Sequence record: PV808484.1
DNA from: a phage
Length of the DNA: 64,000 nucleotides
Strand: one strand, 5' to 3'
In this document: positions 9,657-26,513 of the stretch, piece after piece
How the letters are laid out: the number at the start of each line of letters is the position of its first letter
Numbering within the stretch: the first letter of the stretch is position 1
The notes under the pieces: generated by a model
What the model was told of the DNA's origin: nothing
Database searches by the model: none
Seen by the model: only the letters and a program-made list of their open reading frames with translations
Made by a program: the position numbers and the translations under genes

Positions 9657-9995
9657 ATGTTTAGTAAAGAAATGAGAGAAGTAATTGCCACTTTGGTAGT
9701 TGATCATGGTGTTGAAGTTGAGCGTCACGTTTGGAACGATGAACCTCCTTTCTTCGATTTGGCATCACGAGCTAAAAGTCATATGCACCTGCTGGAAGAC
9801 GGTAATGAGTTTGTTCTCCGTATGCGTTATGATCGAGAGTTTCGAATTCCGCTTGACACTGAACCAGATGGTGTAGTAATGTGGTTGGCAGAACATTTCG
9901 CATACGATGCACTACATGGAAGAAGTTTTGGTAATGAGCGTTGGGATGCCATTTGTCGTAAGCATAATATTGAACCAGAGTACGGGAGTTTATAA
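9657..9995 (+). CDS. hypothetical protein
   Basis: 112 aa ORF; GGAGGG SD. Confidence 0.5.
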   Translation: MFSKEMREVIATLVVDHGVEVERHVWNDEPPFFDLASRAKSHMHLLEDGNEFVLRMRYDREFRIPLDTEPDGVVMWLAEHFAYDALHGRSFGNERWDAICRKHNIEPEYGSL

Positions 9996-10903: not shown

Positions 10904-12031
10904 ATGAAATACACGATTTATGGTGATATTGTAAGTGTAAATAAAGATATGGGCGTGGAATCTAACTACCTTCCACCTGGATTCTATACTGTTAGTCGTG
11001 ATCCCCTTGGCAATTATTTTTTAAGCCGTGGTAATCTGACAGGTGTACCGGATGTTCTGTATGGTGAAACAGAAAAACGAGCAAATCACGTTATCCGTAC
11101 ATTCCATCGCCGGAGTGCACAAGGTAAAAATACAGGTTTGCTCCTGACAGGAACTAAGGGCAGTGGTAAAACTATGTTAGCCAAACTCATTAGTCGTGAC
11201 CTTGTAGAAGAAGGTATTCCAACTATTATGGTTACTCAAGCCTACAGCGATGCTAATTTCATTGAACTTATTAGCAAGATCACCGACAAAGCAGTGATTA
11301 TTTTTGACGAGTTTGATAAAGTGTATGAGAAGAAACAAGATCAAGAAGCACTTCTCACTTTGTTAGATGGTACTGGCAGTGGTAATAAACTGTTTATTCT
11401 GACTAAAAACAGTGGTTTTATCTCTGAATTCTTTTTAAATCGTCCTAGTCGTGTGTTTTATAATTTTAATTATGATAAAATCTCACTAGAAACTATGATT
11501 GACTATTTAGATAAAAACCTGGATAACAAAGCACACTTTGATAATTTCCAAAGACTTTGGGATGTAAGTTTAGAGTTGTCCTTTGATGTGATCCAAGGTA
11601 TAGTAGAAGAACTTAATTTCTACCCTGATTTATCCTTTAAAGAATGCATCTCTATGATGGGCGTTTCTTTAGGTGGTGGTAATAAATGGGATATCAGCAG
11701 CGTTGTTATTAATGGAAAACTTCAGAAAGTTAGCTGGGTATCTAGTTGGCATAACTTCACACCTGCAATCTTTTTAGGTGGTTCGTGCACACTAGACGTG
11801 TACTTGTCATCTCCAAGTGATGCAGATTCTAAAGAAGCCCTTGCTAATAGCTCTTACGTGGTTTTTGATGATGAAGGCGATGCTCGAATTCCATTGAATG
11901 CGACAAAAATGAAAGCAGACCTTATCACAGGCGGTAAAATCGTTGTGTTTAGTGATGATCCAGAAGATTCTTTCCGTATTGTTCTGGAACCAACTATCAC
12001 CAATGGTGCAACTTTGGCAAGCGTGTTTTAA
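10904..12031 (+). CDS. AAA-type ATPase
   Basis: Walker A LLTGTKGSGKTMLAKL and Walker B VIIFDEFDK. Confidence 0.7.
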   Translation: MKYTIYGDIVSVNKDMGVESNYLPPGFYTVSRDPLGNYFLSRGNLTGVPDVLYGETEKRANHVIRTFHRRSAQGKNTGLLLTGTKGSGKTMLAKLISRDLVEEGIPTIMVTQAYSDANFIELISKITDKAVIIFDEFDKVYEKKQDQEALLTLLDGTGSGNKLFILTKNSGFISEFFLNRPSRVFYNFNYDKISLETMIDYLDKNLDNKAHFDNFQRLWDVSLELSFDVIQGIVEELNFYPDLSFKECISMMGVSLGGGNKWDISSVVINGKLQKVSWVSSWHNFTPAIFLGGSCTLDVYLSSPSDADSKEALANSSYVVFDDEGDARIPLNATKMKADLITGGKIVVFSDDPEDSFRIVLEPTITNGATLASVF

Positions 12032-12047
12032 GTAAGCCAGCAAATAA

Positions 12048-12072
12048 AAACCCGCTTCGGCGGGTTTTCTTG
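12048..12072 (+). terminator. rho-independent terminator
   Basis: AAACCCGC-TTCG-GCGGGTTT hairpin followed by TTTTCTTG. Confidence 0.7.
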
Positions 12073-12105
12073 CATTAATGCCAGATTTAATAAGAGGAGT
12101 AGTAG

Positions 12106-13083
12106 ATGGCAGCACCAAAATCATGGGAACAATATAAAGAAGAGTGTATACCAATAGCAGAGAGTAAGCAAATCCAAATCTTAGGATGGACGGGACAATG
12201 GAAAGGGGGCCACACAAAACTTGATTTGTTGTGCCATTGTGGTTATAAATGGGATACTACAAGTATTAACAGTTTTAAATGTGGTAGCGGTTGTCCACAA
12301 TGTAAGAGGGAGAAACAAACAATGTCCGACGATCAACATATTGCAGGTTTCTTTTCTACAGGGAAATTTAAGGAAGGCACTATCTTCACTAACACAGGAA
12401 CACGGGGTAAAGGATGTAGGCATATTACCTGGATGGTTGAATGTCCTGTTTGCTCTCATGATGAATATGTTCAAGCAGGTGTTTGTGATGGTAAATTTTA
12501 CTCTAAAGGACATCGCCTTAAACAAGGGTATATTCCGTGTCGTTGTGGGAAATATCAGTATACAGAAGACCAGATCACCTATAGGGTAAAAAAGGAAGTA
12601 GAAGGGAAAGGGTATGTCTGGGTAGATTGGATTACCAAACCCTCTTCTATAGGTAAGTTTAAATATCTTTGTCTTGTGCATGGTGAGCAGATAGGGAGTG
12701 CTCGTAATTTATTAAGCCTCGGTCAAGGTTGTCCACAGTGTGCTGGTCATAGTCAACAGCAATTATATATTAATATTGTTAAAGATAATGATATTATAGT
12801 TGCTCTTAAGTTTGGTATAGCTAAAGATAGCGATAGACGATTAAACGGTCAAAATAGCCGTAATCTGTTTTTTATGGAGCGTATTTGTTTATATGATTTT
12901 AGCACAGTGAAACAATGTAAGGCTGCTGAAAGAGCTATAAAGAAAAAATTAAAAACTGGTATTTTAACGGCAAGAGAGTTGAAAGATGGTTATACAGAAA
13001 CAGTAAGTGTTTCTGATTTGGAAAATCTTCAAAAAATTATTACACAATATGGTGGCAAGTTAGTATACAGTAAGGAGGTGTAA
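12106..13083 (+). CDS. multi-zinc-ribbon protein with GIY-YIG-like C-terminal motif, possible nuclease
   Basis: repeated CxC/CxxC modules (CHCGYKW, CGSGCPQC, CPVCSH, CRCGKY, GQGCPQC); C-terminal LYINIV...ALKFGIA...RRL...ERI. Confidence 0.5.
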   Translation: MAAPKSWEQYKEECIPIAESKQIQILGWTGQWKGGHTKLDLLCHCGYKWDTTSINSFKCGSGCPQCKREKQTMSDDQHIAGFFSTGKFKEGTIFTNTGTRGKGCRHITWMVECPVCSHDEYVQAGVCDGKFYSKGHRLKQGYIPCRCGKYQYTEDQITYRVKKEVEGKGYVWVDWITKPSSIGKFKYLCLVHGEQIGSARNLLSLGQGCPQCAGHSQQQLYINIVKDNDIIVALKFGIAKDSDRRLNGQNSRNLFFMERICLYDFSTVKQCKAAERAIKKKLKTGILTARELKDGYTETVSVSDLENLQKIITQYGGKLVYSKEV

Positions 13084-13635
13084 ATGCGGATTACTGATAA
13101 GTATGTGTTCTTCTTCTCGGCAAAAGATGAATTTAGCAACTGGTATCTATCATCTTTTATTGAACCTTTAGCTCCCAAGTATAATAATTCTATCACAAGT
13201 TCTGTCGAATTTACTTGTGTGGAACAATATATGATGTGGAGAAAAGCATGTTTATTTTATGATTACAACATTGCATCTTCTATTTTAACCGGAGATCTAA
13301 GATATACAGGAGAAAAAGAACAAGCATATTATAAGCGACTAGGTAGATTAGTTAAAGATTATGATGAAGATACCTGGACTTCTTTACGGGAGAAGATTGT
13401 CAAACGTGGTTTGTATCTTAAATACACACAAAATGAAGATCTCAAAAATAAACTTATAGCTTACGCAGATAAGGAGTTCGTAGAGGCAAGCCCTTATGAT
13501 TCTATTTATGGTATCAAAATGGGGATGTGGGATCGTGATGTTGAAAATAAGGATTGTTGGAAAGGACAAAATCTTTTAGGAAAATGGCATACAGACCTTG
13601 CTGTTTATCTAAAAGCACAATCTGATATTTCCTGA
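13084..13635 (+). CDS. NADAR (YbiA-like, DUF1768) domain protein
   Basis: FFFSAKDEFSNWY, FTCVEQYMMWRKA, GIKMGMWD...NLLGKWH match NADAR signature blocks; ATG overlaps upstream stop. Confidence 0.7.
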   Translation: MRITDKYVFFFSAKDEFSNWYLSSFIEPLAPKYNNSITSSVEFTCVEQYMMWRKACLFYDYNIASSILTGDLRYTGEKEQAYYKRLGRLVKDYDEDTWTSLREKIVKRGLYLKYTQNEDLKNKLIAYADKEFVEASPYDSIYGIKMGMWDRDVENKDCWKGQNLLGKWHTDLAVYLKAQSDIS

Positions 13636-13854
13636 TATTTTGAAAATTTTTATTTTTATAAAAAGGGGTGTGGGTTTCATGTACGGAAATCCACCCTCTG
13701 AATAATATATCCAGAGTAAGTATTATTCTGTACTCTGTTAATAAATTATTTAATTTGTTTGTTGGATTATGATATCTGGTTTTTAAAAGGCATACTATCT
13801 CTTAACTACTACTTATAACAGAACAGTAAAATCATTTTTATAAAAAGGACAAAA

Positions 13855-14051
13855 TTATTTAAAGTTTTTACAGATTTTTGGGTACAAATTTTGAAAATGA
13901 AAAGTTCAAGTTTGGTCAAAATTATTTAAAGTTTTTGTACGTATTTCCATCCAGATTTTGAAAATGAAAAGTTCAATTTTTTAAAAATTCCCCAGTTTAT
14001 TTAAAGTTTTTTTGCCTTTTTCCGTAGAAAAATCAAAAATGAAAAGTTCAA
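13855..14051. repeat. three imperfect tandem repeats (~67-73 bp) with two conserved boxes
   Basis: box A TTATTTAAAGTTTTT at 13855, 13923, 13997; box B TTTTGAAAATGAAAAGTTCAA at 13889, 13956, 14031. Confidence 0.6.
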
Positions 14052-14076
14052 TTTCGTGTTTTTATAGGTATGCGTA

Positions 14077-14190
14077 TGATAATCATTCTCATTTGTAAAT
14101 GAGAATCATTATCATTTAATTATGTAAGTGATAATCATTCTCAGTAAGAGAATGAGAATCATTAGCAAATGAGAATTTTCTCATTTAGAG
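14077..14190. promoter_or_regulatory. cluster of Fur-box-like palindromes
   Basis: TGATAATCATTCTCATT, AATGAGAATCATTATCATT, GTGATAATCATTCTCAG, AATGAGAATCATTAGC; compare Fur consensus GATAATGATAATCATTATC. Confidence 0.5.
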
Positions 14191-14853: not shown

Positions 14854-14980
14854 TCATCTTGTCGAGGGGGGCGAGGCACAACGACAATAAACAAAAGGAG
14901 GGCGCAATGCAGGACGGGCAAAGGTGAGGATCTCCACAATCCACCGTCACAATAACATTACTTATAAAAGGTTGATAACG

Positions 14981-15076
14981 ATGATCAAGAAAGAAAACAG
15001 CTTGACGGTTGGAACGATTAACGCTATCATTTTCGCCGTTCCATTTTGGGTTGTAGTAGCGGTTATTATCTTTTAA
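14981..15076 (+). CDS. small hydrophobic peptide (31 aa), type I toxin-like
   Basis: MIKKENSLTVGTINAIIFAVPFWVVVAVIIF; about 120 nt leader containing a 6-codon mini-ORF (MQDGQR) with AAGGAGG SD. Confidence 0.35.
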   Translation: MIKKENSLTVGTINAIIFAVPFWVVVAVIIF

Positions 15077-25357: not shown

Positions 25358-25430
25358 GTGATAATCATTCTTATTTATAGCTGATTATTTATGCAATAAA
25401 CTGCATAATGCAATAATGATAATCATTCTT
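25358..25430. promoter_or_regulatory. Fur-box-like palindromes
   Basis: GTGATAATCATTCTTA and AATAATGATAATCATTCTT; the latter 16/19 to Fur consensus. Confidence 0.5.
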
Positions 25431-25440
25431 AACTTATGAC

Positions 25441-25790
25441 CATCTAACCTATAAAATAATAAGTTATCTAACTAAATTAAAGCTAATTATTTCACCTTTA
25501 TTTATAACTTACTGTTACTATCTCATTGATAACCTTATATTAAACAACAATAACTAATATAAATCATTACTAAGCTAAATATAATCTATCTAACCTTTAA
25601 AACTATAACTATAATCTATCGAATTGTTGCACAAAGTAACTATTAAATTGTTAGTAACATTACTAAATAATTCATATCCTATCTATTTATGATCTAATCT
25701 TTACTTTCCTATCTATTACCTAAATAATCCTATCATACAGTTACCATTTCATGTAATAATCATTTCATACAATAACTATAACAAGAAATA
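25441..25790. repeat. G-depleted AT-rich low-complexity tract
   Basis: about 4 percent G on plus strand; degenerate ATCTATC / CTAACCT motifs. Confidence 0.55.
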
Positions 25791-25808
25791 TAATTCGCAA
25801 GCGTATCA

Positions 25809-25982
25809 TTAGCAGCCTATGCCGGACACATAGGCGGCTAATAATAACGCAACTACACACCCCACATAATAACCATCACCGATAGTTATTATTTGTGCTT
25901 ATGTAGCTTGCAACAATTGCAAGCGCAACAATATACATGGTATATTGTATCCCTTACATTGTTGCGGTGCGTTATTATTAGC
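25809..25982. repeat. nested inverted repeats (structured noncoding element)
   Basis: hairpin TTAGCAGCCTATG-CCGGACA-CATAGGCGGCTAA; palindrome GCTTGCAA-CAA-TTGCAAGC; 14-bp inverted pair GCTAATAATAACGC / GCGTTATTATTAGC. Confidence 0.5.
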
Positions 25983-26296
25983 TAATGTTTGGAACATTGG
26001 CTATAATATAAGCTAAATAATAAGCTATTCAATAATAAACATAATGAATAATGACACTGATGATCATAATGCGCCACCTTCCAGGGGGCGCTATGTGAAC
26101 ACAAAGAAATCTTTCTTGTCAAGAAAAATATTAACACTATTGCGCAAAATTATTTATGTCTGAATAGATGATTTTTCATACTATTGTTATTATTTATCGG
26201 CCCTAACTATTGCCTATTTGTTGAGCCTACTTTCTTAAAAGCGCAATAAATCAGAATTATCTTGATTTTTAGGGTGTTTTATAGTATAGAAAATAT

Positions 26297-26317
26297 GCAA
26301 ATGATAATCATTATCAG
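26297..26317. promoter_or_regulatory. Fur-box-like site (near consensus)
   Basis: GCAAATGATAATCATTATCAG; 16 contiguous matches to Fur consensus. Confidence 0.55.
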
Positions 26318-26481
26318 CTATCTTCCACGGGTGGCACTATTTCACGCAGGATCATTTCATTTGGCAAGGTGTATATAGATGTTTAGACTTGCCAAGCCAT
26401 TGATTTACTTAGAATTTATCTGTTTTGTTGTGAGTAGTACCTTTCTTGCTCAGAAAATAATCAAAAGTCTTATAAGTCATT

Positions 26482-26513
26482 GAATGATAATGCAAATGAT
26501 AATTATTCTCATT
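26482..26513. promoter_or_regulatory. Fur-box-like site
   Basis: GAATGATAATGCAAATGATAATTATTCTCATT. Confidence 0.45.

Follow-up and report, generated by a model that had tools for sequence, protein, structure and literature searches.

An AdfN-type NADAR gene and a CapR/T5orf172 homing-endonuclease-type gene abut in a phi92-like phage, probably without sharing a function

The window analysed here, 64,000 nt of the phage record PV808484.1, contains two abutting genes that a first-pass annotation had coupled in a joint function of DNA damage reversal or anti-defence. Our analysis instead makes it quite probable that they are functionally independent, one encoding a NADAR protein of the AdfN type and the other a T5orf172 homing endonuclease gene (HEG) product, that they are probably co-transcribed in an early or accessory region, and that their abutment reflects a synteny specific to the genus Justusliebigvirus. 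We found no evidence that the NADAR and the endonuclease work together. The window belongs to a Justusliebigvirus (phi92-like) myovirus of Escherichia coli that is ∼98.5% identical to the BASEL phage Bas61 (nucleotide identity measured over 4 kb), the two being separate isolates. Both ORFs are real and lie on the + strand, at 12106-13083 (325 aa) and 13084-13635 (183 aa). The ATG of the NADAR gene had been described as overlapping the upstream stop; in fact the TAA ends at 13083 and the ATG begins at 13084, and the genes abut. The features of the locus are the following.

12036..12082, + strand: terminator-like hairpin followed by UUUUCUU, directly 3′ of the AAA-ATPase gene
12092..12099, + strand: Shine-Dalgarno AAGAGGAG of the endonuclease gene, read from the sequence
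12106..13083, + strand: free-standing CapR-array/T5orf172 endonuclease gene, 325 aa, homologue of phi92 gp222 (Pfam CapR, T5orf172, PHROG 681)
12115..12303, + strand: N-terminal canonical CapR zinc-finger unit, aa 4-66, with C43, C45, C63 and C66 (unit HMM)
12328..12555, + strand: central variant zinc module, aa about 75-150, C113xxC116 ... C145xC147 (Cys positions)
12556..12741, + strand: C-terminal canonical CapR unit, aa 151-212, with C189, H192, C209 and C212 (unit HMM, conservation)
12742..13080, + strand: T5orf172/GIY-YIG-fold nuclease domain, aa 213-325 (Y221, K235-F-G237, R245, E275, E298)
13072..13079, + strand: Shine-Dalgarno AAGGAGGT of the NADAR gene, lying within the final codons of the endonuclease ORF, read from the sequence
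13084..13635, + strand: NADAR protein gene, AdfN-Bas60 type, 183 aa, homologue of phi92 gp223 (Pfam NADAR, E 2.5e-36)
13664..13699, + strand: hairpin without U-tract, shortly 3′ of the NADAR stop

The hairpin at 12036..12082 has a predicted folding energy of -17.8 kcal/mol (z = -3.76), and none of 200 shuffled sequences was equally stable. A consensus scan of positions 12032-12105 found no sigma-70-like site. With such a terminator-like hairpin upstream, expression of the HEG-NADAR pair probably depends on read-through or on an unrecognised promoter. Downstream of the pair, the region 13636-13720 folds at -22.6 kcal/mol (z = -2.98), and the hairpin that it contains is possibly the transcript 3′ end or a stabiliser. 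The phi92 annotation places an AGGAG ribosome-binding site at the position homologous to the Shine-Dalgarno of the endonuclease gene, and another at that of the NADAR gene. tRNA and Rfam scans of the 64-kb window gave no matches.

Profile searches with Pfam NADAR and GIY-YIG had been proposed as a check on the first-pass annotation, and they placed the 183-aa product firmly in the NADAR family, as it had claimed. The protein scored 125.8 bits against PF08719 (cut-off 35.1), with residues 13-168 aligned to profile positions 9-154 of 163, and 109.8 bits against TIGR02464 (‘riboflavin biosynthesis intermediates N-glycosidase’), above the NCBIfam cut-off of 73.7; it also matched PDB 8BAU (E 9.5e-13). 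Alignment to 8BAU showed that equivalents of all the active-site residues are present (E47, K54, R88, Y93, W98, R102, E134 and D139, corresponding to E43, K50, R79, Y84, W89, R93, E125 and D130 of P. nicotianae, with roles taken from PMC11543638), and that the equivalent of P. nicotianae W133 is a Tyr (Y142). The sequence is identical to that of Bas61 at 183 of 183 positions and to that of Bas60 at 181 of 183 (98.9%); neither of the two differences, N62S and A178T, falls in the active site. The locus also matches that of the Bas60-type phages, where the NADAR gene occupies the same position 3′ of the same endonuclease-type gene. Many GenBank records label the protein ‘YbiA-like N-glycosidase’, ‘GTP cyclohydrolase II’ or simply ‘hypothetical’.

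The Bas60 protein is AdfN-Bas60, known from the BASEL phages Bas60/61/62 as an anti-DarT factor NADAR (Johannesman, Carlson & LeRoux, Nat Commun 2025). When expressed ectopically, AdfN-Bas60 neutralises DarT1 and allows three phages sensitive to DarTG1 to form plaques again, whereas it does not counter DarTG2 (PMC11257639, PMC11825919). All of this relied on ectopic expression, and the sections of these papers covered here describe no knockout of the gene in its own phage. We see no material difference between AdfN-Bas60 and the window NADAR, which is effectively the same protein. On this near-identity the 183-aa NADAR is assigned as the AdfN-Bas60 anti-DarTG1 enzyme, a predicted guanine-ADP-ribose DNA glycohydrolase. 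Host DarT1 would ADP-ribosylate guanines of the phage DNA and block its replication, and the NADAR would restore replication by hydrolysing the ADP-ribose-guanine bond. Thus, the idea that this gene counters a DarT-type defence is right, yet it is already published, since the Bas60 protein has been shown to neutralise DarT1. A HIDEN-SEQ preprint covers T4 adfN and adfM only, not phi92-like phages.

Comparison with other NADARs refined this placement. AdfN-T4 (gp30.3) and the DarG1/BC4488 antitoxins have in common with the window protein the NADAR fold, guanine de-ADP-ribosylation in DNA and an anti-DarT1 role. At the position of P. nicotianae E125, however, the window protein carries a YbiA-type Glu (E134), whereas the AdfN-T4 clade carries His and the DarT1-associated NADARs carry Asp. 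AdfN-T4 further differs in that it is not active without phage infection, while the Bas60-type protein is (PMC11825919). Compared with the DarG1/BC4488 antitoxins, the window NADAR lacks the N-terminal extension, its Pfam domain starting at residue 13 of 183, and it lacks an adjacent DarT gene. No ART gene lies beside it, the neighbours being the ATPase gene and the HEG. Its score against NF053876 (NADAR family anti-phage protein DS32_2) was 26.2 bits, below the cut-off of 240, and the sole PADLOC match was to the candidate-system NADAR model.

The Glu at the catalytic position and the score above the TIGR02464 cut-off are shared with E. coli YbiA and, together with several of the GenBank annotations, would fit a metabolic N-glycosidase of the YbiA kind, with intermediates of the riboflavin pathway as substrates. 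We consider this scarcely credible given the direct anti-DarT1/anti-DarTG1 activity of a 98.9% identical protein. In addition, the phylogeny in PMC11257639 puts AdfN-Bas60 outside the YbiA-like group, together with bacterial NADARs that are neither YbiA nor DarT-associated, and no riboflavin genes were found near the NADAR gene. Even E. coli YbiA can hydrolyse guanosine-ADPr in vitro; it gave cells no protection against DarT1 (PMC11125620), whereas AdfN-Bas60 does protect them (PMC11825919).

The product of the upstream gene had been described as a putative nuclease with five Cys-pair modules and a GIY-YIG-like C-terminal motif, and this description was borne out. The 325-aa protein contains three CxxC and two CxC pairs, which together with C189/H192 make up three four-ligand zinc modules. 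It matches Pfam CapR over three stretches (E 6.1e-24) and PHROG 681 ‘endonuclease’ (E 8.5e-69), and its AF2 model has a pLDDT of 91.8. The CapR Cys/His ligands are conserved among 38 homologues: C43, C63 and C66 of the N-terminal unit are invariant, and the central module, whose CxxC...CxC order is that described for the PLE CapR (PMC8096241), is at least 90% conserved. The C-terminus matches T5orf172 marginally when the whole protein is used (20.1 bits, cut-off 20.0) and with 22.7 bits when the domain is searched alone; among 19 homologues, 14 match T5orf172 and eight match MUG113. Y221, K235, G237, R245, E275 and E298 are invariant in the 38 homologues, down to 30% identity, and the protein combines a GIY-YIG fold with the conserved Tyr, Arg and Glu. 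Identity to the solved GIY-YIG structures (SLX1/HIGLE and the I-TevI catalytic domain) is no more than 14-16%. In contrast to these, the protein has a substitution of the second Tyr, so that ‘YIG’ becomes K-F-G, a motif kept in the consensus of the 38 homologues. The relationship to GIY-YIG is detectable solely through Pfam and fold search: against PDB sequences, phmmer with the whole protein returned chance matches to antibody chains only, and a profile of the T5orf172 domain returned coiled-coil noise only.

By tblastn, the 325-aa protein matches ‘putative homing endonucleases’ of vibriophage ICP1, for example gp165 (31% identity over 70% of the query). The CapR/T5orf172 homing-endonuclease class has been described, together with its CapR repeats in tandem and their loss in frame (PMC10448857, PMC8096241); for one T5orf172 protein, PMC10448857 cites a nuclease activity that depends on a Glu. 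From domain content and conserved residues, we classify the 325-aa protein as a homing-endonuclease-type nuclease of the T5orf172 class, for which we infer cleavage and a target site; the CapR zinc-finger array would recognise DNA and the C-terminal T5orf172 domain would cut it. As in the ICP1 T5orf172 HEGs (gp165, gp174 etc.), tandem CapR units precede a C-terminal T5orf172 domain, and as in ICP1 gp174/gp174* the number of repeats shifts through in-frame recombination (PMC10448857). ICP1, however, has many such genes, whereas the window phage has one copy in 64 kb, with no paralogue in the window; the gene also belongs to a different phage lineage (Stephanstirmvirinae) and occupies a single fixed locus, for which no allele with an empty site was seen. 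Unlike the 325-aa protein, the PLE repressor CapR has no nuclease domain, and I-TevI carries its DNA-binding domain at the C-terminus rather than at the N-terminus. The survey of HEGs in PMC10448857 mentions phi92-like or phAPEC8-like phages neither in its text nor in the five supplementary files examined.

Searches of IMG/VR with single proteins retrieved no more than four to five close relatives, a sample too small for statistics on co-occurrence, and pairing was analysed by tblastn on the phage collection and hand-picked loci. In Justusliebigvirus the two genes abut in all of the at least 50 GenBank records examined. The HEG was likewise present, abutting the NADAR gene, in 20 of 20 further contexts (metagenomes and assemblies, by exact-protein look-up), and no empty ATPase-NADAR junction was found in either set. 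In those genomes of the sister genus Phapecoctavirus that were examined the HEG holds the syntenic position, with two ORFs separating it from the NADAR gene. The sole relative without it is EP57, where a microhomology deletion has joined the ATPase and the following ORF into one and a separate deletion truncates the NADAR. In the phage collection, tblastn found NADAR homologues in 717 records (Staphylococcus 233, Listeria 54, Enterococcus 47, Bacillus 44, others) and HEG homologues in 403 (Escherichia 163, Vibrio 146, others), coming mostly from different genera. No CapR/T5orf172 gene neighbours the NADARs of Vequintavirinae, Kayvirus and Pecentumvirus, and no NADAR accompanies the HEG homologues of DU_PP_I, Kashira and ICP1. 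A 176-aa ORF abutting the HEG homologue of Pectobacterium phage DU_PP_I was considered as a second pair and dismissed, having neither NADAR similarity nor a Pfam match.

The strict abutment, the ribosome-binding site of the NADAR gene within the upstream gene and the presence of the pair in every Justusliebigvirus context seen could suggest that a zinc-ribbon nuclease and a NADAR act in one pathway of damage reversal or anti-defence, for example with the nuclease recognising or processing ADP-ribosylated DNA that the NADAR then cleans. The absence of the HEG and the truncation of the NADAR in the same phage, EP57, speak for such coupling and against independence; this is weak evidence because the EP57 genome has lost ∼20 kb overall. 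Plasmid-borne AdfN-Bas60, on the other hand, suffices against DarT1, its expression rescues unrelated phages, and the authors state that other phage factors are unnecessary (PMC11825919). The intervening ORFs of Phapecoctavirus, the NADARs without partner and the HEG homologues without NADAR further argue against a joint pathway. The two genes also evolve at decoupled rates (dS 0.61 in the CapR region vs 0.13 in the NADAR). Because the tested NADAR acts alone, neighbourhoods differ and rates are decoupled, the joint function that the first-pass annotation drew from adjacency is unsupported, and we judge it highly improbable.

A different link would be a mobile cassette, in which the HEG cuts a co-infecting genome and repair of the break carries the NADAR gene along by co-conversion, thereby spreading it between phages. 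HEGs do occur at the edges of exchanged blocks in other phages (PMC10448857), and in Vequintavirinae one or two HNH endonuclease genes come after the NADAR gene. Nevertheless, we hold this to be very improbable, since no recipient site without the pair appeared among the 20 contexts and the flanks are no more homogeneous than surrounding genes. Moreover, the NADAR is 98-100% identical within Justusliebigvirus and 56-59% identical to that of the sister genus, where the ATPase has 65.5% identity; its divergence tracks the phage phylogeny and therefore points to vertical descent.

Nucleotide identity in the CapR part of the endonuclease gene ranges from 69 to 99%, as against 95-99% in the flanking genes. 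The CapR region showed a dS of 0.61 with a dN/dS of 0.34, compared with 0.13 and 0.22 in the T5orf172 domain, 0.08 and 0.003 in the ATPase and 0.13 and 0.044 in the NADAR. Alleles within Justusliebigvirus are 325, 329-330, 390-397 or 465-468 aa long (396 aa in phi92 and 467 aa in Bas60, for instance), and that of phAPEC8_ev052 is 486 aa. In the window allele, nt 1-117 of the N-terminal unit are 93% identical to unit 1 of phi92 and nt 87-225 are 92% identical to unit 2 of outra, which marks this unit as a chimera in which unit 1 is joined to the last of the N-terminal units found in longer alleles. The array thus probably evolves through gain and loss of units of about 65 aa and exchange of old, divergent alleles, the window allele representing a minimal form produced by in-frame recombination between two units. 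HEG-driven conversion homogenising the flanks was rejected, their identity (95-99%) being like that of other nearby genes.

The fixation of the HEG in Justusliebigvirus leaves room for a retained useful function, because classical homing predicts presence/absence polymorphism and the gene is intact in every context of the genus examined. The endonuclease-type gene might then be no longer selfish and be kept as a sequence-specific weapon or regulator that cuts co-infecting phages or satellites with other alleles, for which there are precedents in the T5orf172 nuclease that ICP1 uses in conflict and in known domestication (PMC8096241, PMC10448857), or as a CapR-array repressor, likened to the PLE CapR or to I-TevI autorepression. 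The lack of any empty site would fit, as would the purifying selection on the catalytic core (dN/dS 0.22), with its residues invariant, next to a diversifying DNA-binding array. In the closest pairs there are hints of excess non-synonymous change in the CapR region (18 non-synonymous and two synonymous changes between the window and phiWec187; five and none between the window and Bas61). However, dN/dS over the whole CapR region stays below 1, and its high dS mainly indicates that old alleles have been exchanged, an outcome equally expected from ordinary HEG turnover. EP57 is viable without the gene, and PADLOC returned no match for the endonuclease. We therefore regard a retained role as unlikely. 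The same doubt applies to a maintained nuclease that switches specificity, in which a reshuffled CapR array would let each phage cut relatives or satellites with other alleles while adfN at most hitch-hikes; such switching would explain the genus-wide fixation, the conserved core and the island of divergence between near-invariant neighbours.

Two independent genes thus remain the reading that we prefer, and the locus is overall ordinary and largely known. Its minor curiosity is a fixed endonuclease gene, set between near-invariant neighbours, whose array differs among alleles both in sequence and in the number of its units. The practical value lies in annotation: the upstream gene is ‘hypothetical’ in many GenBank records, and we propose the names AdfN (anti-DarTG1 ADP-ribosylglycohydrolase) and CapR/T5orf172 homing-endonuclease-type nuclease. 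The assignment is relevant to predicting the resistance of therapeutic phi92-like and phAPEC8-like phages to DarTG1 on E. coli strains that carry it. The pair also cautions that tight abutment in a phage operon need not mean shared function, and its fixed yet hypervariable endonuclease offers a modest lead on how the DNA-binding arrays of HEGs diversify.

The window comes from a phi92-like myovirus of E. coli, a Justusliebigvirus (Stephanstirmvirinae) that shares 98.5% identity with the BASEL phage Bas61 (EmilieFrey) over the 4 kb around the gene pair; at least 80% of that 4 kb is covered in 55 phage records. MG065645 ('Campylobacter phage A145', UNVERIFIED), A150, C3 and A110a are also Justusliebigvirus genomes (~92% identity at the locus), and their Campylobacter host label is probably wrong. 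The locus comprises the following features:

12036-12082, strong hairpin followed by a U-run, 3′ of the AAA-ATPase gene (-17.8 kcal/mol, z -3.76)
12106-13083, + strand, endonuclease ORF, 325 aa, counterpart of phi92 gp222
13084-13635, + strand, NADAR ORF, 183 aa, counterpart of phi92 gp223

Both ORFs, on the + strand, lie exactly where the first-pass annotation had placed them. The overlap that it claimed between the NADAR ATG and the preceding stop codon does not exist: the endonuclease TAA occupies 13081-13083 and the ATG begins at 13084, so the genes abut, and the NADAR Shine-Dalgarno sequence, AAGGAGGT, sits within the final endonuclease codons. A search of the 74-nt spacer upstream of the endonuclease gene returned no sigma-70-like promoter. 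The upstream AAA-ATPase (10904-12031; phi92 gp221 homologue, PHROG 2376) is labelled 'FtsH-like protease' or 'ATPase or Zn metalloprotease' in records, and 670 assembly-collection blocks list exactly this protein. Just 3′ of the NADAR gene are three direct repeats of 67-75 nt (13834-14054; TRF period 67, score 185), with related motifs starting at about 13652; the intergenic region 3′ of NADAR is annotated as 'repeat_region' in GenBank in phages alia and muut, and the repeats are possibly promoter or regulatory iterons. Further along, Fur-box-like palindromes (TGATAATnATTATCA, at most 2 mismatches) occur at 14077-14167, 14973-14987 and 25359-26511, concentrated in two ORF-poor intergenic stretches and with a perfect site at 26302-26316. 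The window holds 9 of them against 0.86 expected, a number reached in 0/100 shuffles, and 5 matches to a 19-mer Fur consensus against 0.03 expected. These palindromes may be sites bound by host Fur, or operators at which a regulator of the phage acts.

Profile searches upheld the NADAR assignment (Pfam NADAR, E 2.5e-36, 125.8 bits, cut-off 35.1; TIGR02464, 109.8 bits, cut-off 73.7; PHROG 1017). Among solved structures the closest is that of the P. nicotianae NADAR (8BAU, E 9.5e-13), and through this alignment we mapped the active-site residues from the set that Schuller et al. list (PMC11543638). The equivalents E47, K54, K84, R88, Y93, W98, R102, E134 and D139 are all present. The residue at the diagnostic catalytic position is Glu; T4 gp30.3 and its clade have His there and DarT1-associated NADARs have Asp, so membership of either clade is excluded. 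The protein is identical to that of Bas61 (183/183) and differs from that of Bas60 (181/183) by N62S and A178T, both distant from the active site. Johannesman, Carlson & LeRoux named the NADAR of Bas60, Bas61 and Bas62 AdfN-Bas60; by their account it neutralises the DarT1 toxin on its own, its expression lets three unrelated DarTG1-sensitive phages form plaques again, and DarTG2 is unaffected (PMC11257639; PMC11825919). The initial statement that NADAR enzymes are reported to remove ADP-ribose from guanine in DNA, and the prediction that they could thereby counter DarT-type defence, were correct in the light of this work, carried out on an essentially identical protein (181-183/183 aa). The anti-DarT role of this NADAR type is already in the literature.

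The endonuclease protein gave three stretches of homology to Pfam CapR (E 6.1e-24), a C-terminal T5orf172 match (20.1 bits for the whole protein, cut-off 20.0; 22.7 bits for the domain alone) and a match to PHROG 681, 'endonuclease' (8.5e-69). Among 19 homologues, 14 match T5orf172 and 8 match MUG113. The five Cys pairs noticed at first reading were confirmed and, with C189/H192, make up three four-ligand Zn modules. In homologues down to 30% identity the Zn ligands, Y221, K235, G237, R245, E275 and E298 are invariant or nearly so; Y221 to E298 correspond to the Tyr/'YIG'/Arg/Glu sequence pattern of the GIY-YIG superfamily, bearing out the GIY-YIG-like C-terminus originally proposed. By tblastn, the protein is related to 'putative homing endonucleases' of the vibriophage ICP1, e.g. 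gp165. Members of that class carry CapR Zn-finger DNA-binding units in tandem ahead of a T5orf172 domain, with repeat number shifting through in-frame recombination (Netter et al., PMC8096241; Barth, Dunham & Seed, PMC10448857). The same architecture places the predicted window nuclease in this described class; its cleavage, target site and homing we infer.

We compared eight Justusliebigvirus alleles, each against the window. The ATPase was identical in seven (375/375) and differed at one residue in the eighth (374/375), which together with its dN/dS reveals extraordinary constraint; NADAR was 179-183/183 identical. The endonuclease was just 69-97.5% identical, with lengths of 325-467 aa.

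dS and dN/dS by region
CapR region: dS 0.61, dN/dS 0.34
T5orf172 domain: dS 0.13, dN/dS 0.22
NADAR: dS 0.13, dN/dS 0.044
ATPase: dS 0.08, dN/dS 0.003

The CapR region forms a sharp island of divergence (69-99% nt identity) among genes that are 95-99% identical. Its high dS points to ancient divergent DNA-binding alleles undergoing exchange, and conservation of the nuclease core indicates that the enzyme is still under selection. Alleles start with 1-4 canonical units at the N-terminus; a central CxxC...CxC module comes next, then one further canonical unit and finally the nuclease domain, the window allele being the minimal 1+1+1 form. In its N-terminal part, nucleotides 1-117 are 93% identical to phi92 unit 1 and nucleotides 87-225 are 92% identical to outra unit 2, the two parts overlapping at the conserved WKG..TKL motif. 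The single N-terminal unit of this allele is a chimera, the trace left by an in-frame deletion from one unit into another. A 112-aa ORF at 9657-9995 also exists as two allelic forms in phages that are nearly identical elsewhere (99% nt identity in Bas61 and outra, ~66% in seven others), and a 183-aa ORF takes its place in several contigs; it is another local allele replacement.

The first-pass annotation had proposed that nuclease and NADAR act jointly in DNA damage reversal or anti-defence. The pair does abut in every Justusliebigvirus context seen (at least 50 GenBank records and 20 metagenome/assembly contexts found by exact-protein look-up), and the Phapecoctavirus Escherichia phage EP57 (OR544956; locus L028, 3480-4010) has lost both genes through two separate microhomology-mediated deletions. 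The first takes out the whole endonuclease gene, leaving the ATPase fused to the ORF that follows, and the second takes out the first 103 aa of NADAR. The EP57 case is weak as support for joint action, as this 130.7-kb genome is ~20 kb shorter than those of its relatives (~150 kb), but it does show that a phage can form plaques without either gene. Against a joint function, the tested NADAR works without a partner and the rates of the two genes are decoupled (dS, dN/dS). Their phage sets also differ: the 717 phage records with a NADAR homologue are mostly of Staphylococcus, Listeria, Enterococcus and Bacillus phages, and the 403 with an endonuclease homologue are mostly of Escherichia and Vibrio phages. 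So do their neighbourhoods. In Phapecoctavirus, the sister genus, the genes are separated by two small ORFs lacking a Pfam match; Kayvirus and Pecentumvirus NADAR has no nuclease neighbour; and no NADAR lies near the endonuclease homologue of Pectobacterium phage DU_PP_I, of Serratia phage Kashira (where it adjoins the DNA polymerase gene) or of ICP1. Vequintavirinae NADAR is flanked by a lipoprotein gene and 1-2 HNH endonuclease genes, close to recombination genes. Joint action is therefore not supported. In Seunavirus KE23 (locus L006, 4510-4947) and Klebsiella phage K54_rec5 (locus L007, 4455-5424) the HNH gene or genes follow NADAR, making Vequintavirinae a second lineage with NADAR beside homing-type nucleases, here of an unrelated family; this adjacency may just reflect the abundance of such genes in these phages.

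A classical homing endonuclease is expected to leave both occupied and empty sites. No empty site was found in the Justusliebigvirus records and contexts surveyed, and the endonuclease gene was intact in every one. The gene is either a selfish element that became fixed recently and whose alleles are still turning over, or, in what we regard as an improbable alternative, one kept for a use, such as competing against co-infecting phages or satellites or regulating via the CapR array.
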